From Clostridia bacterium (GTDB lineage Bacteria > Bacillota > Clostridia > Oscillospirales > CAG-272), in assembly GCA_017398595.1 (NCBI GenBank), contig JAFQFR010000013.1, forward strand, positions 152 to 64,151: a stretch of DNA of 64,000 bases. The letters run 5' to 3'. The stretch's first letter is position 1. The number at the start of each line of letters is the position of its first letter. The notes under the pieces were generated by a model. The model did not search any database and was not told where the DNA came from. It worked only from the letters and a program-made list of their open reading frames with translations. This document shows, piece after piece, positions 10,280-23,275 of this stretch. A program made the position numbers and the translations under genes.

Positions 10280-10314
10280 AGAATTGCCTCGATGGGAAGA
10301 TTTATTCTATTATT

Positions 10315-11184
10315 TTAGCGTTTTCCCGTATTTTTGTCAACTGAAATTCGTGGTTTTATAGCAGCATTCTTTTCATCCATATTCTCGGTAATAAAATTTT
10401 TCAGAAAATCCGTTGCAAAGGTATAAGAAATACCTTCTGTGCTTTTCCAGTATTCCAGCTCTGTGGAGATGTGATCCAACATATAGAAAAGCAGCGTGGC
10501 TAATTCATCATAGCTTTGCGGATAGAAAAACATTTTGTCAATGCGCATTTGTTCTTCTATCGGTAATAGATACATTTGCTTATACCGTTTGGAGTCAACT
10601 TCGTTTCTTTTTGCAATCAAATCAATGACTGCGGTTCGGATCTCATTTAATTCATAATAGCATCTGTATTTGTCATTCCGTTTGTATGCAATAATCGAGT
10701 GCATGAAGTTATACCATAACTTTTCGTCTATTATTCGGATAACTTTGTGCATATCAACAACATCTGTTGTGCCTTTGTTTTTCAGTTGCAGGTCATGCCA
10801 AGAGTTCACCATCTGTTTTTCTGCTTTGCCGGTTTTGTCATAAATAACTTTAAAATTTTCTCTTTTGGCATACAGGGCATCTAAAGTACAGTAGCCAATA
10901 TCTATTTCTAAGTAGTTATCTAACAAGAATACTTGCAGCTTTCTTCTTGGGATGGCTTCGTATGCGGCAATCTGACATATTTGCTGCATGTCTTGATATG
11001 TTTTTGTGAAAATGGTTTCTATATCACTGTCGTTTGTAACGATGGATAAGTCCAAATCCGAATACTTGTCTTTAAAGCCGATGGCGCCCGATCCCACCAA
11101 AATGACAGACAATATGTCTTCTCTGCTTTGCAAAGACATTACAAGTTGGTTTAATATTTTCTCTCTGTCTTTCGTATCGTACAT
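10315..11184 (-). CDS. Nucleotidyltransferase-domain protein with an Lnu/ANT-like antibiotic nucleotidyltransferase fold
   Basis: 289 aa. The pol-beta-type NTase motif LVGSGAIGFKDKYSDLDLSIV (GS...DxD) resembles the YGS...YSDIEF motif of lincosamide/aminoglycoside nucleotidyltransferases as I recall it. A helical C-terminal domain follows. Clearly AT-rich by eye. Confidence 0.55.
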   Translation of the reverse strand: MYDTKDREKILNQLVMSLQSREDILSVILVGSGAIGFKDKYSDLDLSIVTNDSDIETIFTKTYQDMQQICQIAAYEAIPRRKLQVFLLDNYLEIDIGYCTLDALYAKRENFKVIYDKTGKAEKQMVNSWHDLQLKNKGTTDVVDMHKVIRIIDEKLWYNFMHSIIAYKRNDKYRCYYELNEIRTAVIDLIAKRNEVDSKRYKQMYLLPIEEQMRIDKMFFYPQSYDELATLLFYMLDHISTELEYWKSTEGISYTFATDFLKNFITENMDEKNAAIKPRISVDKNTGKR

Positions 11185-11204
11185 TATATGAACCTCTTGA
11201 AACT

Positions 11205-12320
11205 TTACATTTGATTGTGTATTTCTTGCAGAATCGAACTGCCCTGCAAATTCGGTAACTGTGACAAACGATCAAAGCAGTCGGTAACATAGGTGTTGAT
11301 TGTTTCCGGGGACACATACTGATTTTCAATATAATCGGTTTCCGGAAACATCAAGCAATGTTTATTTTCCGAATCGTTCAAAAACGTCAAATATACCGTT
11401 CTTGTTTCCAGTAGCTGCTGCATGCAGGAGAGTGCTTTGTCCGTCATATCGAGGTCTGCATATTGCTTTACCATTCCATAGAGCAGTAAAGTTTTTTGAT
11501 AGATCATGCGATACGGCAAATAGTCACCTCCGGACAAAAATGCGTTGAGAATATGCAGCATATATTCATTTAGCGCCAACTGCTTTTCAACGCCTGTTTC
11601 TCCCTCTGCTGCTATGCTGATATTGCGGCACAGACGAATGCACCTTGCGATAAATCGCGCTTTTTCCGCAAAGCTTTCCTTGCATTTTTGCAGTGCCAAT
11701 TCCATATCCCCGTCTGCATATGCAAATTCTGCTTCCCAATAGGTACGATCGCCGAATGTGTGCGGCAGCTTTTCCTTGATTTGCTCGGCTCGTTCCTTTT
11801 CTCCGAGAAAGGTATAGCATCGTGAAGCAATATAATAACTTTTGAAAACCGCATCGGGATTTGTTTCATAGCGAGAGATACAGTTTTCATATCGCTTGCA
11901 TTCTTTTAAAAGTGTCTGTTTGTCGGCGTTTGTCCGCTTCGCGATTATCAGCACCGACAGGCTCTCAAGGCACCAAAAAGCGATCTCGGGATTGGTTGGA
12001 TGCTGGGCAAAAAGAGGGATCGATAAGTCATATATACGCTGTGCTTCGTCCGCGGAGAAAGAAACGGTATGATGTCCGATTTTTTCGCGGATAGAAGTGA
12101 TTTCTTCTTCTGTTTCATCCGACGTTAGCCCCAAAAGCTTGTCCGTAGAGATATTGAGTACCTTTGCAAGTGGTACGATCATAGAAATATCCGGCATGCC
12201 CCAATCCGTTTCCCATTTGGAAACCGCCTGCGTAGAGACATTGATCATTTCTGCGAGTTCACTTTGCGTGAGCCCCAGTTCTTTTCTGTAAAATCGAATG
12301 GTTTGACCTACTGACATCAT
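11205..12320 (-). CDS. XRE-family HTH regulator with a TPR-like helical C-terminal domain
   Basis: 371 aa. N-terminal Cro/C1 HTH IRFYRKELGLTQSELAEMINVSTQAVSKWE, followed by a long alpha-helical repeat-like region. AT-rich. Confidence 0.75.
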   Translation of the reverse strand: MMSVGQTIRFYRKELGLTQSELAEMINVSTQAVSKWETDWGMPDISMIVPLAKVLNISTDKLLGLTSDETEEEITSIREKIGHHTVSFSADEAQRIYDLSIPLFAQHPTNPEIAFWCLESLSVLIIAKRTNADKQTLLKECKRYENCISRYETNPDAVFKSYYIASRCYTFLGEKERAEQIKEKLPHTFGDRTYWEAEFAYADGDMELALQKCKESFAEKARFIARCIRLCRNISIAAEGETGVEKQLALNEYMLHILNAFLSGGDYLPYRMIYQKTLLLYGMVKQYADLDMTDKALSCMQQLLETRTVYLTFLNDSENKHCLMFPETDYIENQYVSPETINTYVTDCFDRLSQLPNLQGSSILQEIHNQM

Positions 12321-12492
12321 TGCTGTATGTTCTCCTTTTATGTTTTCGGTACCGTAATTCTATTATACTACAGCGATTCTTTACTGTAAACAAACTTAAC
12401 CGAAAGGTGAATTCCACGCACCGTGGAATTTTGAAGTGAGGCATGCAGCGTATTTCATAAAAAAACTCGTCAGAAATGGATAGGTTTTTATA

Positions 12493-12529
12493 TTGACAAA
12501 TGCACAAAGAGATGCTAAAATTTTAACAT
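12493..12529 (+). promoter_or_regulatory. Promoter of the hydrogenase-sensor operon with an overlapping Rex-like operator
   Basis: TTGACA (12493-12498), 17-nt spacer, TAAAAT (12516-12521). TGCTAAAATTTTAACA (12513-12528) has one mismatch to the Clostridia Rex core TGTTAA-N4-TTAACA. Confidence 0.6.
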
Positions 12530-12571
12530 TAGATAATGCAATTTTACCAATACTTTAAAGGAGAAAATTAC

Positions 12572-12811
12572 ATGAAAATTACCGTTTGTATCGGCAGCTC
12601 CTGTCACCTCAAGGGATCACGCCAGGTCGTTACCGGTCTGCAGTACCTGATCGCGCAAAACAATCTCGCCGACCTTGTGGAGCTCGGCGGCACTTTTTGC
12701 ATGGGCAAATGCCAGGACGGCGTTTGCGTAACGGTGGATGAGAAGTTTTTCTCTGTATCTCCCGATACGGTAGAGGAATTCTTTAAAGAGCAGGTGCTTA
12801 CGAGGCTGTGA
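12572..12811 (+). CDS. Thioredoxin-like [2Fe-2S] ferredoxin-domain protein
   Basis: 79 aa from the ATG after AAAGGAG. Cys pattern CIGSSC...CMGKC (Cx4C...Cx3C), as in NuoE/HydC-type [2Fe-2S] modules. Confidence 0.7.
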   Translation: MKITVCIGSSCHLKGSRQVVTGLQYLIAQNNLADLVELGGTFCMGKCQDGVCVTVDEKFFSVSPDTVEEFFKEQVLTRL

Positions 12812-12812
12812 G

Positions 12813-13061
12813 ATGGTAATACAGATTTGTGTGGGCAGTTCCTGCCATCTGAAAGGCTCCCAGGAGATCGTGGAGCTGTTGCAAAAGGCGATCGAGGAGC
12901 ATCATCTTACCGAAGAGGTCACGCTGGCAGGCAGCTTTTGTATCGGCACCTGCAACCGCGACGGTGTGACCGTGCAGGTGGACAACGAGGTCTGCGTCGG
13001 CATCAACCGCGAGAACTTCAACAGCTTCCTGCAGAGAAAAATTCTGTCAAAATTCGCATAA
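12813..13061 (+). CDS. Thioredoxin-like [2Fe-2S] ferredoxin-domain protein (tandem paralogue)
   Basis: 82 aa with the same Cys pattern, CVGSSC...CIGTC. Starts 1 nt after the previous stop. Confidence 0.7.
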   Translation: MVIQICVGSSCHLKGSQEIVELLQKAIEEHHLTEEVTLAGSFCIGTCNRDGVTVQVDNEVCVGINRENFNSFLQRKILSKFA

Positions 13062-13092
13062 CCGAAACTGATTTACCAAAGGAGAGAGCAAA

Positions 13093-14769
13093 GTGTCCGA
13101 TTGCCTGACGCTGAAAAAATCCAACTGTAAAAACTGTTATAAATGTATCCGTCATTGCCCGGTGAAGTCCATCCGTTTTTCGGGAAACCAGGCGCATATC
13201 ATCGGCAATGAGTGTATCCTGTGCGGACAGTGCTTTGTCGTATGTCCGCAGAATGCAAAACAGATCGTAGACGAGACCGAAAAGGTGCGTGTCTTGCTGC
13301 AGGGCGGCGATCCCGTGATCGTCAGCCTGGCGCCCTCGTTTATCGCCAACTACAACGGCGTCGGCATCGGGGCAATGCGGAAAGCACTGCTCTCACTCGG
13401 CTTTTTTGACGTTGAGGAGACCGCGGTGGGCGCGACCATCGTCAAAAACGAGTATGAGCGCATCCTGCACGAGGAAAAGCCCGAGGTGCTGATCTCCTCC
13501 TGCTGCCATTCGGTCAATCTGTTGATCCAAAAATATTTCCCCACGGTGCTGCCGCATCTTGCCGACGTGCTGTCGCCCATGCAGGCACACTGCAAGGATA
13601 TTAAGCGCCGCAACCCGGGCGCGAAAACCGTATTCATCGGTCCCTGCGTTGCAAAAAAGGATGAAGCCGCGTATTACGAAGGCTATGTCGATGCGGTGCT
13701 GACCTATGAGGAGCTGACCGGATGGCTGAAGTCGGCGGGCGTGGAGCTCGTCCCCGAGAAGGACGAAACTGCCGAGAGCCGTGCACGCTTCTTCCCGACG
13801 ACGGGCGGCGTGCTCAAGACCATGAAACAGGACGAACCCGGCTATACATATCTTGCGATCGACGGTGTGGAGAACTGCATCGCCGCACTGCACGACATTG
13901 AAAGCGGCAATATCAAAAACTGCTTTATCGAGATGTCTGCCTGTGTCGGCGCCTGCGTCGGCGGTCCCGTTATGGAAAAATACCATCGTTCGCCCGTCAA
14001 GGACTACATGGCGGTCGCGGAATATGCAGGCGACCGTGACTTTGTCGTAGAGCAGCCGGGCATGCGCGAGCTGCGCAAGAATTTCACCCCCATCGAGCGC
14101 CGTTTGCAGACGCCGAGCGAGGACGAGATCCGCAGCGTTATGCGCCAGATGGGTAAGTTCAAGCCCTCGGATGAGCTCAACTGCGGCACCTGCGGATACC
14201 CCACCTGCCGCGATAAGGCGATCGCCATCTGCCACGGCAAGGCGGAGATCTCCATGTGCCTGCCGTTCCTCAAGGATAAGGCAGAGAACTTCTCGGACAC
14301 GATCGTGGAGAACACGCCGAACGGTCTGATCGTGCTCAACGAGAGCCTCGAGGTGCAGCAGATCAACTCGGCTGCACGCAAGATCATGAACATTCGTTCG
14401 GCATCCGACGTGCTCGGCGAGCAGGTCATCCGCATTATGGATCCCGCCGTTTTTGCCGAGGCCCTGCGCAACGGCAGAGGACCCGTCAACCAGCGTGCGT
14501 ATCTTGCCGAGTACAAGCGCTATGTCGAGCAGACCGTGGTCTACGACCGCGACTATCATCTGCTCATCTGCATCATGCGCGATGTGACCGATGAGGAAAG
14601 TGCGCGCGAGAGAAAAGAAGACATCAGCCGTCAGACGGTAGAGATCGCCGACCGCGTGGTCGATAAGCAAATGCGCATCGTGCAGGAGATCGCGTCGCTG
14701 CTGGGCGAGACGGCTGCCGAAACCAAGATCGCGCTGACCAAGCTAAAGGAGTCGATTTCTGATGAATGA
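13093..14769 (+). CDS. hydS: Sensory-type [FeFe]-hydrogenase homologue with C-terminal PAS domain (HydS / group C-like)
   Basis: 558 aa, GTG start after AAAGGAGAGAG. Has an N-terminal 2x[4Fe-4S] motif (CIRHCP, CILCGQCFVVCP). H-cluster-like motifs are SSCCHS, GPCVAKKDE and EMSACVGACVGG, with Ser where catalytic enzymes have Met before the Cys. An extra CGTCGYPTCRDK cluster and then a PAS-like region follow. Confidence 0.8.
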   Translation: MSDCLTLKKSNCKNCYKCIRHCPVKSIRFSGNQAHIIGNECILCGQCFVVCPQNAKQIVDETEKVRVLLQGGDPVIVSLAPSFIANYNGVGIGAMRKALLSLGFFDVEETAVGATIVKNEYERILHEEKPEVLISSCCHSVNLLIQKYFPTVLPHLADVLSPMQAHCKDIKRRNPGAKTVFIGPCVAKKDEAAYYEGYVDAVLTYEELTGWLKSAGVELVPEKDETAESRARFFPTTGGVLKTMKQDEPGYTYLAIDGVENCIAALHDIESGNIKNCFIEMSACVGACVGGPVMEKYHRSPVKDYMAVAEYAGDRDFVVEQPGMRELRKNFTPIERRLQTPSEDEIRSVMRQMGKFKPSDELNCGTCGYPTCRDKAIAICHGKAEISMCLPFLKDKAENFSDTIVENTPNGLIVLNESLEVQQINSAARKIMNIRSASDVLGEQVIRIMDPAVFAEALRNGRGPVNQRAYLAEYKRYVEQTVVYDRDYHLLICIMRDVTDEESARERKEDISRQTVEIADRVVDKQMRIVQEIASLLGETAAETKIALTKLKESISDE

Positions 14770-15934
14770 TCTGTGTGCCGACATCGGCTATAAAAGCATC
14801 AATCACTACGGCGAGCAGCTCTGCGGCGACCACGTGGACGTGGTCGATCAGGGAGAAAACTCGACAGTGATCGTCCTCGCGGACGGACTCGGCAGCGGCG
14901 TCAAGGCGAGCATTTTGTCCACGCTGACCTCCAAGATCATTTCCACCATGCTCGCGGCAAATCTGCCGCTGGAGGAGTGCGTTGCGGCGATCGCCGCAAC
15001 ACTGCCCGTGTGTTCACAGCGCGGCGTGGCGTATTCGACCTTTACGATCCTGCATCTGATCAACAATGAGACTGCCGAGGTCATCCAGTACGATAACCCG
15101 CAGGTCATCCTCATCCGCGACGAGGTCAACTACGATTACCCGAAAACCGAGATGAACATCGGCGGCAAAAAGATCTTCAAGTCGGTGATCAAGCTGCAGG
15201 AGAATGACATCTTCGTTTCCATGAGTGACGGATGCCCGCACGCGGGCATCGGCACCGCCTACAACTTCGGCTGGAAACTGGCGGATATTACCGAATTCTT
15301 GGAGGGGCTTGCCCCCGTCGGTTACACGGCGAAAACGCTCTCCACCATTTTGGTGGATGAGTGCGACAAGCTCTACGGCGGGAAGCCGGGAGACGATGCC
15401 ACCGCCTGCGTGGTGCGCATCCGCCGCCGCGTGCCCATGAATATACTGTTCGGTCCGCCGTCCAACCGCGACGACTGCGACCGCATGATGTCGCTCTTCT
15501 TCTCCAAGGAGGGCAAGCACATTGTTTGCGGCGGTACGACCTCGACCATCGTGTCGAACTACCTGCGCAAGCCGCTGAAAGCGTCGCTCAACTTCGTGCA
15601 GTCGGACATCCCGCCGATCGCCGAGATCGAGGGTGTGGATCTTGTCACCGAGGGCGTCATCACGGTCAACCGCGTGGTCACCTATGCCAAGGACTATCTG
15701 GAAGAAAACAAGTGCTATGAGCACTGGAGCATCCAGCGCGACGGCGCTTCGCTGATCAGCCGCCTCTTGTTCGAGGAAGCGACGGACATCAATTTCTTTG
15801 TCGGCAGAGCCGTCAACCCCGCGCATCAGAACCCCGATCTGCCGATCAACTTTAATATCAAGATGAATCTGGTTGAAGAACTTTCAACCTGCCTGCGCAA
15901 GATGGGCAAGCATGTCAAGGTCGTATATTTTTAA
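14762..15934 (+). CDS. SpoIIE/PP2C-family serine phosphatase with an additional C-terminal domain
   Basis: 390 aa. Motifs CGDHVDVV...VLADGLGSGVKASI and SDGCPHAG are typical of SpoIIE-like PP2C. Overlaps hydS by 8 nt. Confidence 0.8.
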   Translation: MNDLCADIGYKSINHYGEQLCGDHVDVVDQGENSTVIVLADGLGSGVKASILSTLTSKIISTMLAANLPLEECVAAIAATLPVCSQRGVAYSTFTILHLINNETAEVIQYDNPQVILIRDEVNYDYPKTEMNIGGKKIFKSVIKLQENDIFVSMSDGCPHAGIGTAYNFGWKLADITEFLEGLAPVGYTAKTLSTILVDECDKLYGGKPGDDATACVVRIRRRVPMNILFGPPSNRDDCDRMMSLFFSKEGKHIVCGGTTSTIVSNYLRKPLKASLNFVQSDIPPIAEIEGVDLVTEGVITVNRVVTYAKDYLEENKCYEHWSIQRDGASLISRLLFEEATDINFFVGRAVNPAHQNPDLPINFNIKMNLVEELSTCLRKMGKHVKVVYF

Positions 15935-15952
15935 GGAGATTTTTGAAAAACC

Positions 15953-17376
15953 ATGAGAAAGTTTGATACCAAAGTACAGCACCTCAAATACAAGGTCCTG
16001 CGCGAAGTCGCGCGCGAGGCATGGAACGGAACTCTGCTGGAGAATGCGCTCGATATTCCGAAGAAGATCGTGCCCGGCAAGGAGCCGACCTGCGCTGCTG
16101 CGTGTACAAGGAGCGCGCGATCCTCGGCGAGCGCGTGCAGATCGCCATGGGACGCACCGATGACGGTCAGCATGTGATCGAGGTCATCGAGATCGCCTGC
16201 GACGAGTGCCCTGCTGCCGGCTATGAAGTCACCGATTCCTGTCGCGGATGCCTTGCACACCGCTGTGAGGACGTCTGCAAGCGCGGCGCGATCTCCTTTG
16301 ACCACAACCATGTGGCGCACATTGATAAAACCAAGTGCGTGGAGTGCGGTCAGTGTGCGAAGGTCTGCCCCTTTGCCGCGATCGCCAACCGCAAGCGCCC
16401 TTGTCAGAATGCCTGCAAGATCAAAGCGATCTCCATGGATGAAAACAAGGCGGCAAAGATCGACTACGAAAAGTGCATTTCCTGCGGTGCGTGCGTGTAC
16501 CAGTGCCCGTTCGGCGCCATCACCGACCGTTCCTATATCCTTGACGTCATCGACCTCTTGAAAGAGAGCGAGGGCGGCAAAAATACCAAGGTATATGCGG
16601 TCGTCGCACCCTCGATCTCCAGCCAGTTTACATATGCAAAGCTCGGTCAGGTCATCACGGGACTCAAGGAGCTCGGCTTCTTCACCGTGGTCGAGGCGGC
16701 GCTCGGCGCGGATATGGTTGCCCTGTCCGAGTCGAAGGAACTTGTCGAGAAAGGCTTCTTGACCAGCTCCTGCTGTCCCGCGTTCGTAAAATACATCAAG
16801 TCGTCGTTCCCCGAGCTCGTACCGCTCGTTTCGCACAATCCCTCGCCCATGACGGCGATCGCCAAGTATATCAAGGAGATCACGCCGAATGCCAAGGTGG
16901 TCTTTATCGGTCCCTGCACGGCGAAGAAGGGAGAAGTGCAGCTCGAAGAAGTGCGCCCCTATGTGGATGCGGCAATGACCTTTGAGGAGCTGCAGGCACT
17001 CTTTGACAGCCGCGACATCGATATTACCACGCTTTCCGAGGGCGTGCTGGATAACGCGTCCTACTTTGGCAGAATCTTTGCCCGCTCGGGTGGTCTGTCC
17101 GATTCGGTCAAACAGGCACTCAAAGAGCAGGGCATCGAGGACTTCCCGCTGAAAGCCGCTGTTTGCGACGGTATCGAAGCCTGCCGCACGGCACTGCTCA
17201 AAAAGAGCAAGAATCTCCTCGACGCAAACTTCATCGAGGGCATGGCATGTATGGGCGGCTGCATCAACGGCGCCGGATGCCTGACGCATGGGGAAAAGAA
17301 TAAAGCCGAGGTCGATAAATACGGCATGGAAGCATACGAAAAAACCATCACCGAGGCTGTATCGGTACTGAAATAA
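15953..17376 (+). pseudogene. hydA: [FeFe]-hydrogenase (group B / HydA2-like), interrupted by a 1-nt frameshift as assembled
   Basis: The N-terminal 46 codons (15953-16090, ...IVPGKEPT) are in one frame. The rest, RCCVYKERAILGERV... from 16093, is in another, with only 2 nt (TG) between them. Catalytic H-cluster motifs are intact: TSSCCPAF, GPCTAKKGE, EGMACMGGCINGAG. Several 4Fe-4S motifs are also present. Confidence 0.75.
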
Positions 17377-17380
17377 TCCA

Positions 17381-17416
17381 AAAACGGCATGCTTTTAAAC
17401 GAGCATGCCTTTTTTC
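17381..17416 (+). terminator. Rho-independent terminator after the hydrogenase gene
   Basis: GGCATGCT/AGCATGCC stem followed by TTTTTTC. Confidence 0.75.
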
Positions 17417-17417
17417 T

Positions 17418-17446
17418 TTGACTTTTTCTTCTCACGGTGTTATACT
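17418..17446 (+). promoter_or_regulatory. Sigma-A-type promoter ahead of the riboswitch
   Basis: TTGACT (17418-17423), 17-nt spacer, TATACT (17441-17446). Confidence 0.55.
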
Positions 17447-17451
17447 GAGTG

Positions 17452-17640
17452 CAGCAGATCAAGAGGAATCGGGTGCAACTCCCGGGCGGGCACGCCGCCG
17501 TGAACCTTTTTGCTGCAAAACGGGCACATTGCCACATGTGCTTCGCGAAAGCGGTCATTGATGCATTTTGCATCGAGAAGGCGTTTTGCATTTTGAGGCA
17601 AGCCGGAATACTCGAGATCGAACGCGGCTGTATGCGAGTG
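17452..17640 (+). promoter_or_regulatory. Probable cobalamin (B12) riboswitch
   Basis: AAGAGGAATCGGGTGCAACTCCCGGGCGGGCACGCCGCCGTGAAC matches, by eye, the conserved core AGGGAA..GGTG.AA.TCC...C.G.CCCGCCACTGTAA. The downstream CAAGCCGGAATACTCG resembles the AGCCAGGAGACCTGCC element. It precedes genes of B12-uptake type. Confidence 0.6.
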
Positions 17641-17688
17641 CCGACATCGCGGCTGCGGCGATGCATCATTAGAAAGGACAGAAAGAAA

Positions 17689-18135
17689 ATGAAAAAACAA
17701 ACTCTTTTGATTCGCCTTTCGCTCGTTCTGACCCTTTGTCTGCTTGTGGCGGCAGTATCGGTCGGATGCGGCGAACAAACACCACAGGAGACGACAGGTA
17801 CATCGGATGTGCAGCCTGCACCGGCTGCGGAGCCGATCGGAGAGGGGCAGTACACCTTTGCCTTTACCGCGGTCTTTGCCGATGGCAGCGCAAAGCGCTA
17901 TGCGGTCTCCACCGATCGTGAAACGGTCGGAGAAGCGCTGATCGAACTGAAACTGATCGAGGGAGAAGCAGGTCCCTACGGTCTGTATGTCAAGAGCGTA
18001 TGCGGCGTGGTCGCCGATTACAATATCGACGGCACCTATTGGTCGCTGTACACCGACGGCGAAATGTCGATGACCGGCGTGGACTCGCTTGGAAGCGCGG
18101 ACGCCGTGGACATTGAATTCCGCGTAGAGAAATGA
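17689..18135 (+). CDS. DUF4430 (transcobalamin-like C-terminal domain) lipoprotein
   Basis: 148 aa from ATG 17689. Signal peptide plus lipobox (LLVAAVSVGC). The YTFAFTAVFADGS...WSLYTDGEMSMTGVDS region is typical of DUF4430. Confidence 0.7.
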   Translation: MKKQTLLIRLSLVLTLCLLVAAVSVGCGEQTPQETTGTSDVQPAPAAEPIGEGQYTFAFTAVFADGSAKRYAVSTDRETVGEALIELKLIEGEAGPYGLYVKSVCGVVADYNIDGTYWSLYTDGEMSMTGVDSLGSADAVDIEFRVEK

Positions 18136-18665
18136 GAACACGCACGCGGCTGACCGTCCGCGAGATCACGGTATTTGCCATGCTTGGCGCGGTGATGTTC
18201 GCGGGCAAAAAACTGGTGGAATGGATCCCGAACGTGCATCCCGCTACGATGCTTACCATGGTGTACACGCTCGCGTACCGCAAAAAGGGGATCATTCCCG
18301 TCATTGTGTACCTCGTGCTGGAAACGGTTTTTACGGGCGGTATCACATGGCTGGTTCCGTATTATTACATTTTTCCGCTTTGCTGGCTGTGTACGCTGCT
18401 TTTACCGAGACACTTGCCGAAGTGGGGCGCGCAGATCTGCTATACGCTTTTGTGTACGCTGTTCGGACTGCTGTTCGGCGTGTTGTACGCACCGTGGCAG
18501 GCGATCCTGTACGGGCTGAGCTTTGAAAAAACGCTCGCATGGGTGGCGTCGGGATTCGCATTTGACGTGACGCACGCTGTCGGCAATTTCGCGGCGTCGT
18601 TTCTGATATTCCCGCTTTTGAATCTTTTACAAAAAATAAACCAAAGCAAAGGCGCTGACGGGTAA
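18132..18665 (+). CDS. ECF-transporter substrate-specific (S) component
   Basis: 177 aa, about 6 TM segments, with the small integral-membrane architecture of ECF S components. ATGA overlap with the DUF4430 gene. No ECF A/T genes are adjacent. Confidence 0.65.
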   Translation: MRTRTRLTVREITVFAMLGAVMFAGKKLVEWIPNVHPATMLTMVYTLAYRKKGIIPVIVYLVLETVFTGGITWLVPYYYIFPLCWLCTLLLPRHLPKWGAQICYTLLCTLFGLLFGVLYAPWQAILYGLSFEKTLAWVASGFAFDVTHAVGNFAASFLIFPLLNLLQKINQSKGADG

Positions 18666-18727: not shown

Positions 18728-18763
18728 TTGCCATTTGCGCAGAAATATGTTAAAATTTTAATG
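18728..18763 (+). promoter_or_regulatory. LysR-gene promoter with an overlapping degenerate Rex-like box
   Basis: TTGCCA (18728-18733), 17-nt spacer, TAAAAT (18751-18756). TGTTAAAATTTTAATG (18748-18763) has two mismatches to TGTTAA-N4-TTAACA. Confidence 0.5.
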
Positions 18764-18792
18764 TTCAGTGATGTAAACAGGAGGTGCAAAAA

Positions 18793-19713
18793 ATGAATCT
18801 GTTGCACTTACGGTATGCCGTAGAAATATCCAAAACGAAGTCGATCAGCAAGGCGGCGGAGAATTTGTTCATGGGACAGCCCAATCTCAGCCGTGCGATC
18901 AAGGAGCTGGAAGAATCGCTTGGCATCGTTATTTTTGAGCGTAGCTCCAGGGGCATTATCGTCACCGCCGCGGGAGAGGAATTTTTGCAGTATGCGCGCC
19001 GTATACTCAATCAGGTGGACGAGATGGAATCGCTCTACCGTGACGGGCAGCGCAATCGGCAGAAGTTTTCCGCCTGCGTGCCGCGCGCAAGTTATATCGC
19101 TGAGGCATTTGTAGAGGTCGCTTCGCAGATCGACTTACAGCAGCCCGCGGAATTTTATTATAAGGAAACCAACCCGATGCATACGATCGACAATGTCTGC
19201 AGCGGGGATTACAATATCGGTATCGTACGGTATCAGGAGACGTTTGCGCAGTATTTTTCGCAGACCTTCGCGGATAAGAATCTGGAGTATCGCCCGATCG
19301 TGACCTTTTCCTATTTACTGCTCGTATCCGAGCGGTCGCCGCTTGCCAAGAAAGAGAATATCAGCGGGGACGATCTGCACGATTATATCGAGGTACTGCA
19401 CGGAGATCCCTATGTGCCGTCGTTTTCGGCAACGGATGCCAAGCGCACGTCCAACGACGATTTTTCGGATAAGCATATCCATGTGTTTGAGCGCAGCAGC
19501 CAGTTTACGCTGCTGGACGCCAATCCGAATACTTATATGTGGGTCTCGCCCATTCCGAAAAAGCTGCTGGATGCCTATCATTTGGTGCAGCGTCCCGCGT
19601 TCGGCGCTATGGAGTACACCGACGTGCTGATCTATCGCAAGGATTATCAGCTGACGCCGTTTGACGAAACTTTCCTTGCCGCCCTGCGTAAAAAACGCGC
19701 ACAGCTGTTTTGA
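18793..19713 (+). CDS. LysR family transcriptional regulator
   Basis: 306 aa from the ATG after GGAGGTG. N-terminal LysR HTH MNLLHLRYAVEISKTKSISKAAENLFMGQPNLSRAIKELE. Confidence 0.9.
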   Translation: MNLLHLRYAVEISKTKSISKAAENLFMGQPNLSRAIKELEESLGIVIFERSSRGIIVTAAGEEFLQYARRILNQVDEMESLYRDGQRNRQKFSACVPRASYIAEAFVEVASQIDLQQPAEFYYKETNPMHTIDNVCSGDYNIGIVRYQETFAQYFSQTFADKNLEYRPIVTFSYLLLVSERSPLAKKENISGDDLHDYIEVLHGDPYVPSFSATDAKRTSNDDFSDKHIHVFERSSQFTLLDANPNTYMWVSPIPKKLLDAYHLVQRPAFGAMEYTDVLIYRKDYQLTPFDETFLAALRKKRAQLF

Positions 19714-19808: not shown

Positions 19809-19844
19809 TTGACAAGCAGCCAAAAGAATGTTAAAATTTTAACA
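19809..19844 (+). promoter_or_regulatory. adhE promoter with an overlapping Rex-like operator
   Basis: TTGACA (19809-19814), 17-nt spacer, TAAAAT (19832-19837). The perfect palindrome TGTTAAAATTTTAACA (19829-19844) matches the Clostridia Rex core. Confidence 0.65.
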
Positions 19845-19894
19845 GAATCAAGAATACCTCTATCAAACTAAAAAAATGTAAGGAGAAACGCAGG

Positions 19895-22513
19895 ATGAGT
19901 ACCACAGAATACAAGATCGTCGACAGCGTGGAAAAACTGGAGGATGCACTTGCCCGTGTACGCGCCGCACAGAAGAAATTTGCGACCTACACGCAAGAGC
20001 AGGTAGACGCCATCTTCCGTGCCGCCGCGCTTGCCGCCGATAAACAGCGTATCCCGCTTGCCAAGCTCGCCGTTAGTGAGACGGGCATGGGTGTTGTCGA
20101 GGATAAGGTCATCAAGAACCATTATGCCGCCGAGTATATCTATAACCATTATAAAGATACCAAAACCTGCGGCGTGATCGAAGAGGACAAAGCCTACGGC
20201 ATACAAAAGATCGCATCGCCGATCGGTGTGATCGCGGCGGTCATCCCCACCACCAACCCCACCTCGACCGCGATTTTCAAGACGCTGCTCGCACTGAAAA
20301 CGCGCAACGGCATCGTCATCAGCCCCCATCCGCGCGCAAAGGAATCCACCATCTGCGCGGCAAGGATCGTTCTGGAGGCGGCAGTTGCAGCGGGCGCACC
20401 TGAGGACATCATCGCATGGATCGACGTTCCCTCGCTGGAAATGACCAATTTTATTATGAAAGAAGCCGATACCATTCTGGCGACAGGCGGTCCCGGCATG
20501 GTCAAGGCGGCGTATTCCAGCGGTAAACCGGCGCTCGGCGTCGGCGCGGGTAATACCCCTGCCGTGATCGACGAATCCGCGGACATTTTGCTCGCGGTCA
20601 ACTCGATCATCCATTCCAAGACGTTTGATAACGGCATGATCTGCGCTTCCGAGCAGTCGGTCATTGTGCCGGATAGTATCTATGAGACGGTGAAAAAGGA
20701 ATTTGCCGATCGCGGCTGCTATTTCCTCGAAGGCAGCGAGCTTGAACAGGTGCGCAAGACCATTCTGATCAACGGCGCACTCAATGCCAAGATCGTCGGT
20801 CAGAGTGCGCACAAGATCGCGTCGCTCGCAGGCGTACATGTACCCGAATATACCAAGATCCTCATCGGTGAGGTCGAGAGCACCGATCTTTCCGAGGAGT
20901 TCGCGCACGAAAAGCTCTCGCCCGTGCTTGCCATGTACCATGCAACGAGCTTTGAAGATGCACTGGACAAGGCAGAGCAGCTGGTCGAGGACGGTGGCAG
21001 AGGACATACCGCATCCGTCTATCTCAACGCCATGACCGAGCGGGAAAAGATCCATGCATTCGCCGAGAGAATGCATGCCTGCCGCATCATGGTCAACACC
21101 CCCTCGTCGCAGGGCGGCATCGGCGATCTGTACAACTTCAAAATGACTCCCTCCATGACGCTCGGCTGCGGTTCCTGGGGCGGCAACAGCGTCTCCGAGA
21201 ACGTAGGCGTAAAGCATCTTTTAAATATCAAGACCGTTGCTGAGAGGAGAGAGAACATGCTGTGGTTCCGCGCACCTGAAAAGGTATATATCAAAAAGGG
21301 ATGCCTGCCGGTCGCTCTCGACGAGCTCGGCACCGTGATGCACAAGAAAAAGGCATTTATCGTCACCGATACGTTCTTATACAATAACGGCTATACCAAG
21401 CCGATCACCGACAAGCTCGATGCCATGGGCATTCAGCACACCACCTTCTTTGATGTTGCGCCCGATCCCACGCTCGGCTGTGCCAAGGCGGGTGCCGAGC
21501 AGATGCGCGCTTTTGCGCCCGACTGCATCATCGCACTCGGCGGCGGCAGCGCGATGGACGCGGCAAAGATCATGTGGGTGCTCTATGAGCATCCCGAAGC
21601 AGACTTTATGGATATGGCAATGCGCTTCATGGACATCCGCAAGCGTATCTATACCTTCCCGAAGATGGGTGAAAAGGCATACTTCGTTGCCATCCCCACC
21701 TCTGCAGGTACGGGCTCCGAGGTGACGCCCTTCGCCGTCATTACGGATGAGACCACGGGTGTGAAGTATCCGCTCGCCGACTATGAGCTGCTGCCCAAGA
21801 TGGCGATCGTGGATGCCGACTTCCACATGAGCGCGCCCAAGGGACTCACCGCCGCATCGGGTATCGACGCGGTTACACATGCACTGGAAGCGTACGCTTC
21901 GATGATGGCGACCGATTATACCGATGGCTTGGCGCTCCGCTCGCTGAAGGTGATCTTCGAGTACCTGCCGCGTGCTTACGACAACGGTGCAAACGATCCC
22001 GAGGCGCGCGAAAAGATGGCAAATGCCGCAACCATGGCGGGCATGGCGTTCGCAAACGCATTCCTCGGTGTCTGCCACTCGATGGCGCATAAGCTCGGTG
22101 CTTTCCATCACCTGCCGCACGGCGTTGCAAACGCATTGATGATCGACGAGGTCATCCGCTTCAACGCGAGCGATGTACCGGCGAAGATGGGTACCTTCCC
22201 GCAGTATGACCATCCGCGCACCGCAGAGCGCTATGCCGAGGTTGCCGATGCGCTCGGACTCGGCGGCGCGACCGTTGCAGAGAAGGTAGAAAACCTGATC
22301 GCCGCGGTCGATGCGCTCAAAGCAAGAGTGGGTATAAAGTCCACGATCCGTGACTATGTTGCGGATGAGGCAGACTTTATGGATCGCCTGGACGAGATGA
22401 CCGAGCAGGCATTCGACGATCAGTGCACGGGCGCGAACCCGCGCTACCCGCTGATGCGTGAGATCAAGCAGATGTACCTGAACGCTTACTACGGCAAGCA
22501 TGAAAATGTATAA
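19895..22513 (+). CDS. adhE: Bifunctional acetaldehyde-CoA / alcohol dehydrogenase
   Basis: 872 aa. An N-terminal aldehyde dehydrogenase domain is followed by a C-terminal iron-containing ADH domain (GGGSAMDAAK, HxxxH region), which is the classic AdhE architecture. Confidence 0.95.
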   Translation: MSTTEYKIVDSVEKLEDALARVRAAQKKFATYTQEQVDAIFRAAALAADKQRIPLAKLAVSETGMGVVEDKVIKNHYAAEYIYNHYKDTKTCGVIEEDKAYGIQKIASPIGVIAAVIPTTNPTSTAIFKTLLALKTRNGIVISPHPRAKESTICAARIVLEAAVAAGAPEDIIAWIDVPSLEMTNFIMKEADTILATGGPGMVKAAYSSGKPALGVGAGNTPAVIDESADILLAVNSIIHSKTFDNGMICASEQSVIVPDSIYETVKKEFADRGCYFLEGSELEQVRKTILINGALNAKIVGQSAHKIASLAGVHVPEYTKILIGEVESTDLSEEFAHEKLSPVLAMYHATSFEDALDKAEQLVEDGGRGHTASVYLNAMTEREKIHAFAERMHACRIMVNTPSSQGGIGDLYNFKMTPSMTLGCGSWGGNSVSENVGVKHLLNIKTVAERRENMLWFRAPEKVYIKKGCLPVALDELGTVMHKKKAFIVTDTFLYNNGYTKPITDKLDAMGIQHTTFFDVAPDPTLGCAKAGAEQMRAFAPDCIIALGGGSAMDAAKIMWVLYEHPEADFMDMAMRFMDIRKRIYTFPKMGEKAYFVAIPTSAGTGSEVTPFAVITDETTGVKYPLADYELLPKMAIVDADFHMSAPKGLTAASGIDAVTHALEAYASMMATDYTDGLALRSLKVIFEYLPRAYDNGANDPEAREKMANAATMAGMAFANAFLGVCHSMAHKLGAFHHLPHGVANALMIDEVIRFNASDVPAKMGTFPQYDHPRTAERYAEVADALGLGGATVAEKVENLIAAVDALKARVGIKSTIRDYVADEADFMDRLDEMTEQAFDDQCTGANPRYPLMREIKQMYLNAYYGKHENV

Positions 22514-22525
22514 GGAGGAGCGCAC

Positions 22526-23275
22526 ATGAAACTGGATAAAGTGATCGCGGTACGCACCGCAAAGACCATCTATCGGGACGGCGACAAGGTCATTAAGCTT
22601 TTTAATGAGGACTATTCCAAGGCGGATGTACTCAACGAGGCGCTGGGACATGCGCGCGTAGAGGAGACCGATCTGCATATCCCGAAGATCCACGAGGTCG
22701 TCAAGATTGATGGCAAATGGGCGATCGTGATGGACTACATCGAGGGCAAAACGCTCGAACAGCTCATGCTCGAGAACCCCGAGAAGAAGAACGAGTATAT
22801 CGAGCTGCTGGTTGATCTGCAGATGCAGGTGCATGCGCACAAGGCGCCGCTGCTCACGCGTCTCAAGGATAAGATGAACCGCAAGATCGATCAGGCGGAA
22901 GTGGATGCGACCACCCGCTATGAGCTGCACACCCGTCTGGAATCCATGCCCAAGCACAACAAGGTCTGCCACGGCGACTTTAACCCCTCTAATATCATCA
23001 TCACGCCTGACGGCACGCCCTATATCGTAGACTGGGCGCACGTTACGCAGGGCAATGCGTCTGCCGACGTGGCAAGAACCTATCTGCTGTTCTACCTGGA
23101 CGGCGATCTGCAGGGGGCGGAGACCTATCTCGATACCTTCTGCAAAAAGAGCGATACGGCAAAGCAGTATGTGCAGAAATGGATGCCGATCGTTGCGGCA
23201 TCGCAGTCGGTCAAGGGTAAACCCGAGGAACGTCAGTTCCTCCTCGGCTGGGTAGACGTGGTCGAATACGAATAA
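22526..23275 (+). CDS. Phosphotransferase-family (APH/choline-kinase-like) protein
   Basis: 249 aa with the catalytic-loop motif HGDFNPSNIII...IVDW. Lies 13 nt after adhE, with a GGAGGAG RBS. Confidence 0.75.
   Translation: MKLDKVIAVRTAKTIYRDGDKVIKLFNEDYSKADVLNEALGHARVEETDLHIPKIHEVVKIDGKWAIVMDYIEGKTLEQLMLENPEKKNEYIELLVDLQMQVHAHKAPLLTRLKDKMNRKIDQAEVDATTRYELHTRLESMPKHNKVCHGDFNPSNIIITPDGTPYIVDWAHVTQGNASADVARTYLLFYLDGDLQGAETYLDTFCKKSDTAKQYVQKWMPIVAASQSVKGKPEERQFLLGWVDVVEYE

Follow-up and report, generated by a model that had tools for sequence, protein, structure and literature searches.

A rearranged copy of the Ruminococcus albus H2-sensing hydrogenase/ethanol-dehydrogenase cluster in an uncultured gut bacterium

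The window, i.e. the whole 64-kb stretch of DNA analysed here, belongs to a 1.88-Mb genome assembly (75% complete) of an uncultured gut bacterium whose close relatives are labelled Acutalibacteraceae/Oscillospiraceae. It carries a putative H2-sensing locus, all features of which lie on the forward strand. The five-gene sensor operon (12572-17376) is preceded by a promoter (12493..12529; TTGACA-17-TAAAAT) that three further assemblies of the species share letter for letter and that bears the palindromic operator ATGCTAAAATTTTAACAT over its -10. The first two genes (12572..12811 and 12813..13061) code for Trx-like [2Fe-2S] ferredoxins of 79 and 82 aa, both of which match PF01257 above the cutoff and have cysteines at positions 6, 11, 43 and 47 (Cx4C...Cx3C). 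They are followed by the gene for HydS (13093..14769), a putative H2-sensing [FeFe]-hydrogenase homologue of 558 aa with two Fer4 motifs (2x[4Fe-4S]), Fe_hyd_lg_C, a C-terminal PF04060 region at residues 362-391 with a four-cysteine cluster (C364, C367, C372 and C389; Cx2Cx4Cx16C) and, after this, a PAS domain (402-498).

HydS retains the four H-cluster cysteines (C138, C185, C284 and C288) and, as C137, the proton-relay cysteine equivalent to Cys299; in the second sphere, Ser282 and Gly183 occupy the positions of CpI Met497 and Met353, respectively. It scores far below the cutoffs of the catalytic-family NCBIfam models and, along its entire length, has 71% identity with R. albus HydS, a group C protein according to the literature; on these two grounds, the assignment of HydS as a sensory, group C-like protein is supported at the sequence level. 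Sensory enzymes of low activity typically have a PAS domain, an extra C-terminal cluster and Ser and Gly at the Met497 and Met353 positions (PMC10055695). Two putative sensors have been characterised biochemically, Thermotoga maritima HydS (TmHydS, group C) and Thermoanaerobacter mathranii HydS (group D). In common with TmHydS, the window HydS has a PAS domain, an additional [4Fe-4S] motif at the C-terminus and the substitutions, which match S267 and G177 of that protein, but it has a cysteine (C137) at the Cys299 position, where TmHydS has alanine; this cysteine is kept in only about 17% of sensory sequences (PMC10055695). Another difference is that the window HydS is paired with a PP2C, whereas the studies of the T. 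maritima and T. mathranii proteins treat no such partner.

This HfsC-type PP2C phosphatase of 390 aa (14762..15934), the start of which overlaps the hydS stop by 8 nt, consists of a SpoIIE domain (residues 32-220), in which all the catalytic metal-binding Asp motifs are invariant, and an extra C-terminal domain (225-390; 165 aa). Foldseek matches its fold to that of SpoIIE/RsbU phosphatases (5mqh, E 6e-15). The C-terminal domain is conserved and Rossmann-like with an invariant, glycine-rich beta-CGG(T/S)T-alpha loop, but is absent from Pfam and has no solved relative in the PDB: the best Foldseek matches against the PDB (UbiX, methylglyoxal synthase, PGK) reached E 0.01 and TM about 0.3-0.4 and thus indicate a generic alpha/beta sandwich only. 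The only profile match, SIS-like, was weak (E 0.045), and the domain was not assigned to a family. The fold and the metal-binding motifs are shared with the partner-switching phosphatases SpoIIE, RsbU and RsbP, from which the window PP2C differs in having its regulatory domain at the C-terminus, with a fold lacking a solved relative, in being partnered with a hydrogenase-like sensor and in lying at a locus without a STAS substrate or HATPase_c_2 kinase.

The last gene of the operon (hydB, 15953..17376) encodes a group B1 ferredoxin-dependent, monomeric [FeFe] hydrogenase (TIGR04105, 522.9 bits against a cutoff of 450), orthologous to HydA2/HfsD. It is frameshifted in this assembly by the loss of one A after position 16090, and is uninterrupted (474 aa) in three sister assemblies; at the site of the deletion, the sister assemblies read ACC-ATG-CGA/C. 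The preliminary description of this DNA had proposed a HydS-type sensory module with a PP2C, and the paired Cx4C...Cx3C proteins, the Ser-for-Met exchange, the additional four-cysteine cluster and the PAS domain of HydS, the C-terminal extension of the phosphatase and the catalytic group B hydrogenase downstream were all borne out by our analysis.

A terminator-like hairpin (17386..17409) closes the sensor operon and is followed by a unit outside the system (17421..18665) with a cobalamin riboswitch, a DUF4430 protein and a 177-aa membrane protein. Further downstream, and linked to one another, lie a lysR-type regulator gene (18728..19713), adhE (19809..22513) and, beginning 13 nt past adhE and 6.6 kb downstream of the flagged sensor genes, a gene for an APH/RIO-fold phosphotransferase of 249 aa (22526..23275). 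The latter matches PF01636 with 61 bits against a cutoff of 23.2 and has the catalytic loop HGDFNPSN at residue 149 and DW at residue 169. The protein is closest to the APH, thiamine/choline kinase and Bud32 families and could be a small-molecule kinase.

The locus comprises three transcription units with a common promoter/operator design. Besides the copy at the sensor operon (12512-12529), the operator is found at lysR (ATGTTAAAATTTTAATGT, 18747-18764), which has its own promoter, and at 19828-19845 in the adhE promoter (TTGACA-17-TAAAAT). Within the 1.88-Mb assembly, the 16-nt palindrome TGYTAAAATTTTAAYR is confined to three sites, each overlapping the -10 of one of these promoters; the reversed control pattern gave no match. 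Compared to the Rex box TTGTTAAN4TTAACAA, the local operator has 2-4 mismatches; genome-wide, 11 Rex-box sites with at most two mismatches were found versus about 3.4 expected. Among 80 relatives, only 6 have the strict local motif in front of adhE. The predicted operator may be bound by Rex or by the LysR of the cluster.

All these genes have one-to-one matches, with 47-80% identity and matching lengths and domain architectures, in the pRUMAL01 cluster of Ruminococcus albus 7 (RUMAL_RS17345-17385; Zheng et al. 2014, Greening et al. 2019). The identities are 68% for Fdx1, 57% for Fdx2, 80% for PP2C, 76% each for HydA2 and AdhE, 47% for LysR and 69% for the phosphotransferase, in addition to the value given above for HydS; rex is the sole gene of the R. 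albus cluster missing from the window set. The gene order in R. albus is LysR-Rex-adhE-phosphotransferase-Fdx-Fdx-HydS-PP2C-HydA2, in which Fdx stands for (2Fe-2S) ferredoxin and PP2C for the SpoIIE phosphatase. In the window, by contrast, fdx-fdx-hydS-pp2c-hydB come first, followed by the B12-riboswitch transporter unit (DUF4430/ECF-S), which R. albus does not have at this place, and then by lysR and adhE-kinase, so that the block lying upstream of the sensor genes in R. albus lies downstream of them here. This permuted order was found in three independent assemblies. The window locus also differs from that of R. albus in the 1-nt deletion in hydB. It is situated on a 202-kb contig of a chromosome or plasmid, and the R. 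albus locus on a megaplasmid. We therefore regard the region as very probably the orthologue of the R. albus 7 hydS-hydA2/adhE regulon, i.e. the hfs-type system of Thermoanaerobacterium. The H2-sensing hydrogenase/ethanol-dehydrogenase cluster of R. albus 7 is already known, and the locus described here is a rearranged copy of it in an uncultured gut bacterium. In R. albus, the cluster was reported to go down 111-fold upon H2 removal (PMC6776011).

In most of 80 close relatives, identified by a contig scan that covered relatives of at least 75% identity and among which there is no named Thermoanaerobacterium locus, the nine-gene set LysR-(Rex)-AdhE-Kin-Trx-Trx-HydS-PP2C-HydB is present in that order. 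The Trx-HydS-PP2C core is kept across 40 diverse Clostridia loci, with HydS and PP2C adjacent in 39 of them, and 144 of 399 Clostridia genomes code for the full-length PP2C, including its C-terminal domain. The invariant core of the system is HydS-PP2C. The arrangement in the window conforms to this, in that the gene for the PAS-containing HydS homologue is preceded by the Trx-like genes and directly followed by that for the SpoIIE-family PP2C of about 390 aa, with the group B ferredoxin hydrogenase behind it.

A partner-switching module, i.e. PP2C, STAS protein and HATPase_c_2 kinase encoded together, is absent. Profile searches of the 64-kb window yielded no STAS gene, no rex gene and no anti-sigma-type kinase; for STAS and rex, this had been stated beforehand. 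Searches of the whole 75%-complete assembly, which covered HATPase_c_2, STAS, Rex, SpoIIE, Pkinase and APH, did recover such genes outside the window, namely spoIIAA/spoIIAB/sigF, one further kinase of the HATPase_c_2 type, one Hanks kinase and a single rex on contig C27, the product of which is 32% identical to the Rex of the R. albus cluster. The only small STAS/kinase pair of the genome, spoIIAA-spoIIAB, is the sporulation operon with sigF, and the second HATPase_c_2 kinase lies in a hydABC operon on contig C52 beside a gene for a HydS-like protein without PAS; both were rejected as partners, neither being linked to the locus described here. Rex is missing from the clusters of many relatives as well and is thus a variable feature. 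No STAS or anti-sigma kinase gene flanks the core in the 40 diverse loci, and in the 80 close relatives the only one found belongs to an unrelated spoIIAA-spoIIAB-sigF sporulation operon on the opposite strand (L162). In these loci, diverse and close alike, the system does not include STAS/anti-sigma partners.

The preliminary description had inferred a kinase-less H2-sensing variant, in which the twin mini-ferredoxins or the C-terminal domain of the PP2C take the place of the kinase/STAS partners. This explanation agrees with the lack of a kinase gene in the sensor operon and of STAS and rex genes in the window, but can hardly be upheld, since the statement that the 64 kb hold no kinase turned out to be wrong: the orthologue of the 'adjacent kinase' of R. 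albus sits behind adhE, under the same operator design. Moreover, R. albus 7, whose reference locus does have the kinase, and most of the 80 close relatives also carry twin ferredoxins and the long PP2C, so neither is a local 'missing link', and STAS genes are not found beside the core elsewhere either. Each of the features flagged as odd, i.e. the missing kinase, the twin ferredoxins and the long PP2C, is either an error or an ancestral trait. Likewise mistaken was the statement that the hfs cluster encodes a kinase: hfsABCD codes for a small protein, a PAS-hydrogenase, a Ser phosphatase and a ferredoxin hydrogenase, and a kinase gene is absent (PMC11837493). At the level of gene descriptions, the window locus resembles hfsABCD of T. 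saccharolyticum/T. thermosaccharolyticum in that these four kinds of genes form one kinase-free operon and in the regulatory link to adhE on the hfs side; it differs in having two small proteins instead of one and in its nearby adhE, which is not described as adjacent to the hfs operon. Deletion of hfsA/B led to higher adhE expression, and deletion of hfsB increased both hydrogenase activity and adhE expression (PMC5707799). This effect of the hfsB deletion, together with the sensory-type substitutions, PAS domain and extra cluster of HydS and the fact that no role of a PP2C in catalytic hydrogenases is known, makes it very unlikely that HydS and the Trx-like proteins, perhaps with the PP2C, make up a multi-subunit catalytic Hfs hydrogenase, as in the original 'hfsABCD hydrogenase' view, and not a sensor. 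That view can draw on the retention of all four H-cluster cysteines plus C137, on the tightly packed or overlapping genes, on the measurable activity of T. maritima HydS (PMC10055695) and on a 2026 paper that still weighs HfsABC as an active hydrogenase without HfsD (PMC13277313).

A possible, though on balance doubtful, explanation is that the phosphotransferase belongs functionally with AdhE, its substrate being AdhE itself or a small molecule, and that the PP2C works with another kinase or on HydS. The kinase gene is located directly 3' of adhE in the window and in 20 of 20 kinase-bearing genomes without PP2C; adhE is present in 93 of 104 kinase-bearing genomes, and expression changes did not fully account for the changes of AdhE activity in T. 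saccharolyticum (PMC5707799). In addition, an orthologue of the phosphotransferase is missing from 84 of the 144 genomes with the PP2C, and 44 genomes have kinase and adhE without PP2C, which means that kinase and PP2C are not an obligate pair. On the other hand, all 11 kinase genomes without adhE have the PP2C, in 43 genomes the kinase gene lies upstream of the PP2C gene at a distance of no more than about 2 kb, and it adjoins Trx-HydS-PP2C with no adhE between them in six relatives' loci (L118, L130, L132, L136, L160 and L166); all of these counts are drawn from related genomes and are non-independent samples. Overall, the kinase tracks adhE as much as the sensor.

For the orthologue of the R. 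albus regulon, a sequence of events can be proposed from published work on R. albus, T. maritima HydS and the hfs mutants of T. saccharolyticum. HydS would bind or slowly turn over H2 at an H-cluster detuned by the exchanges of Met497 to Ser and Met353 to Gly, and its redox state would be relayed along the FeS chain to the [4Fe-4S] cluster at the C-terminus and the PAS domain, with the Trx-like [2Fe-2S] proteins probably poising HydS or accepting its electrons. The redox signal of HydS would then alter the activity of the translationally coupled PP2C, which in turn would set the phosphorylation of some Ser/Thr phosphoprotein; the opposing kinase in this lineage would most plausibly be the adhE-linked APH/RIO-fold phosphotransferase. 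At high H2, adhE and the ferredoxin-only hydrogenase would be upregulated from the shared operator by way of Rex and/or the LysR of the cluster. We know of no published biochemical link between HydS, PP2C and any substrate. A bolder version, which we consider rather improbable, is that the kinase and the HydS-coupled PP2C constitute an H2-controlled phospho-switch with a direct effect on AdhE, or on the cluster LysR/Rex, to which the C-terminal domain of the PP2C adds the input of a phosphate-bearing metabolite (NAD(H), acetyl-CoA or a sugar phosphate).

If true, such a phospho-switch would represent a new kind of Ser/Thr signalling in bacteria, by which ethanol fermentation is coupled to the partial pressure of H2. 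The comparative by-products of this analysis are useful for work on H2 sensing in gut and rumen fermenters and narrow the possible signalling outputs: the HydS-PP2C core is invariant, the Rossmann-like domain is always part of the PP2C, the so-called Ser/Thr kinase has the APH/RIO fold and comes after adhE even where the sensor is absent, and more than half of the sensor-bearing genomes are without this kinase.

The sensor operon (12572-17376) encodes two tandem Trx-like [2Fe-2S] ferredoxins (79 and 82 aa), the putatively H2-sensing hydrogenase homologue HydS (558 aa; 13093-14769), the SpoIIE-family phosphatase PP2C (390 aa; 14762-15934) and a group B1 hydrogenase (hydB, 15953-17376), and the descriptive part of the preliminary description of these open reading frames holds, their coordinates included. 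Both small proteins scored above the Pfam cutoff for PF01257, the Trx-like [2Fe-2S] ferredoxin family, and HydS contains, besides two 4Fe-4S motifs and Fe_hyd_lg_C, the reported extra four-Cys cluster (PF04060 'FeS', residues 362-391) and PAS domain (402-498). According to residue positions in an alignment with the other hydrogenases of the genome, all four H-cluster cysteines of HydS (C138, C185, C284 and C288) are kept, as is Cys137, the equivalent of the proton-relay Cys299; the serine noted in place of Met before the last H-cluster Cys is Ser282, at the position of CpI Met497, and Gly183 occupies the Met353 position. HydS of T. maritima likewise carries Ser and Gly there (S267 and G177; PMC10055695). 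The hydB product, described as a catalytic group-B hydrogenase directly downstream, reached 523 bits with the NCBIfam model for group B1 monomeric [FeFe] hydrogenases (cutoff 450), compared to only 197 bits for HydS. After 16090, hydB is one A short of the sequence in three sister assemblies and in every relative examined (ACC-TGC at 16090-16091 in the window, ACC-ATG-CG. elsewhere). This splits its frame at codon 47, and the gene may be a genuine pseudogene or may have been assembled wrongly here.

The central claim, that this is a kinase-less variant of the module, was refuted. In 40 diverse Clostridia loci around full-length PP2C homologues, whose neighbours were sorted by phmmer and Pfam tally, one unknown neighbour kept recurring: a ~250-aa member of the APH/RIO1/Pkinase families, encoded between adhE and the Trx-like gene. 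Its window counterpart (249 aa) lies at 22526-23275, 13 nt after adhE (19809-22513), matches PF01636 with 61 bits and RIO1 with 34 bits, and carries the catalytic loop HGDFNPSN with DW downstream. The statement that no kinase is encoded in the 64 kb is therefore wrong; in a genome-wide search, this was the sole APH-family gene of the assembly. The adhE-phosphotransferase pair is kept across Clostridia even without HydS or PP2C (20/20 inspected), often with a LysR gene upstream of adhE in the related loci (L046-L185; 40 + 20 + 80), and we found no discussion of this pairing in the literature searched.

Nor are the twin mini-ferredoxins and the long PP2C, previously put forward as candidate missing links, peculiar to this locus. 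In a tblastn search of plasmid records, PP2C matched pRUMAL01 of Ruminococcus albus 7 at 80% identity, in a region annotated in the order LysR, Rex, adhE, phosphotransferase (249 aa), two (2Fe-2S) ferredoxins (79 and 83 aa), hydrogenase-domain protein (558 aa), SpoIIE phosphatase (389 aa) and 4Fe-4S dicluster protein (478 aa), and the best match of each window protein was the corresponding R. albus protein (47-80% identity). Both twin ferredoxins and a long PP2C therefore belong to the kinase-bearing reference system itself. Among 80 close relatives (loci with PP2C 75-85% identical), Trx genes normally come in tandem, and the genes mostly run LysR-(Rex)-AdhE-kinase-Trx-Trx-HydS-PP2C-HydB. The R. 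albus cluster is 111-fold down-regulated on H2 scavenging, and its phosphatase was described as a sensor subunit (Greening et al., PMC6776011). The hfs operon, which had been credited with a kinase or anti-sigma-type partner, is published as HfsA, the PAS-hydrogenase HfsB, the Ser phosphatase HfsC and the ferredoxin hydrogenase HfsD, without a kinase (PMC11837493).

Whereas lysR, adhE and kinase genes precede the sensor genes in R. albus 7 and, usually, in the close relatives, the order in the window is permuted: the sensor operon (promoter 12493-12521, terminator 17386-17409) is followed by an unrelated unit (17421-18665), lysR (18728-19713) and adhE-kinase. A binning artefact was ruled out, since this order recurs in three assemblies that represent the same species but derive from separate samples. 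The intervening unit, which splits the hydS and adhE halves of the cluster in the sister assemblies too, consists of a cobalamin riboswitch (17421-17633; Rfam RF00174, 46 bits), a DUF4430 gene and a gene for a 177-aa membrane protein. Between an EamA gene and the sensor operon lies a two-gene islet of low GC (10280-12570; ~2.3 kb, 41%) encoding a nucleotidyltransferase (289 aa) and an XRE-family HTH protein (371 aa), which we judge to be a strain-specific insertion because it is missing from one sister assembly (L186; EamA to trxA1 gap of 223 bp).

As previously noted, the cluster contains no rex; the single rex of the assembly (75% complete) is on contig C27, its product being 32% identical to the cluster Rex. 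The promoters of the sensor operon, lysR and adhE share one layout (-35 / 17 nt / TAAAAT, with a palindrome on the -10), and the palindromic motif TGYTAAAATTTTAAYR occurs in 1.88 Mb only at these three places (reversed control, 0). It is similar to the Rex box of clostridia, from which it deviates at 2-4 positions, and either Rex or the cluster LysR could bind this putative operator. Good Rex-box matches outside the window, TTGTTATTATTCTAACAA at C10:140780, near a second group B-like hydrogenase (C10:138873-139559), and TTGTAAAAATTTTAACAA at C56:157978, suggest a wider Rex regulon. Also outside the window, upstream of bifurcating hydABC genes, a second putative sensor set (C52:24666-33254) encodes a DRTGG protein, a HATPase_c_2 kinase (140 aa), a PAS-less HydS-like protein (448 aa, with a C-terminal four-Cys motif), DRTGG, PHP, NuoE-like, HATPase, Trx-like Fdx and NuoF-like proteins and HydA, whose L1 motif reads TSCSPGW compared to canonical TSCCPxW in a four-sequence alignment.

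In PP2C, the SpoIIE/PP2C domain (residues 32-220) has metal-binding motifs (GD, DGxGSG, SDG and GDD(T/A)T) that are invariant in 33 sequences with identities down to 22%, and the AF2 model (pLDDT 87.6) matches SpoIIE/RsbU-type phosphatases. The extra C-terminal domain was confirmed as residues 225-390, for which Pfam holds no family. It occurs in 1102 representative clusters, almost always as residues 225-390 of ~390-aa proteins, with the invariant motifs GPP, CGG(T/S)T, PP..G.DL.TEG and G...N. Its confidently predicted three-layer alpha/beta fold (pLDDT 89.4) had no significant match in the PDB, and sequence searches gave only a marginal SIS-like match; HydS docking or ligand binding are possible roles.

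We assessed distribution in 399 sampled Clostridia genomes as raw tallies, from which no statistics were drawn because related genomes are not independent samples: full-length PP2C was present in 144, a kinase orthologue (E < 1e-50) in 104 and AdhE in 176. Kinase and AdhE co-occurred in 93 genomes, 44 of them without PP2C; all 11 genomes with the kinase and no AdhE had PP2C, and 84 had PP2C without the kinase. The kinase gene was directly 3' of adhE in 20/20 inspected genomes having the kinase and no PP2C, and less than 10 kb from PP2C in 43 of the 60 genomes with both, at a spacing of at most 4.1 kb (typically ~2 kb) with the window (6.6 kb) as sole exception. These counts and spacings suggest that HydS-PP2C is the core of the system, that the kinase is accessory, with ties to adhE and sensor alike, and that in most lineages PP2C must work independently of this kinase. 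Beside the core, the phmmer and Pfam tally of the 40 diverse loci revealed neither STAS nor HATPase_c_2 genes; one close relative (L162) has, by chance, an unrelated spoIIAA-AB-sigF operon next to it on the opposite strand.

The locus is an orthologue, with altered gene order, of an H2-responsive cluster already described in R. albus 7, and the finding as first noted is therefore of little interest in itself. Its value is modest and lies in useful comparative observations: how the kinase is distributed, the operator common to the three promoters, and the uncharacterised domain of PP2C.
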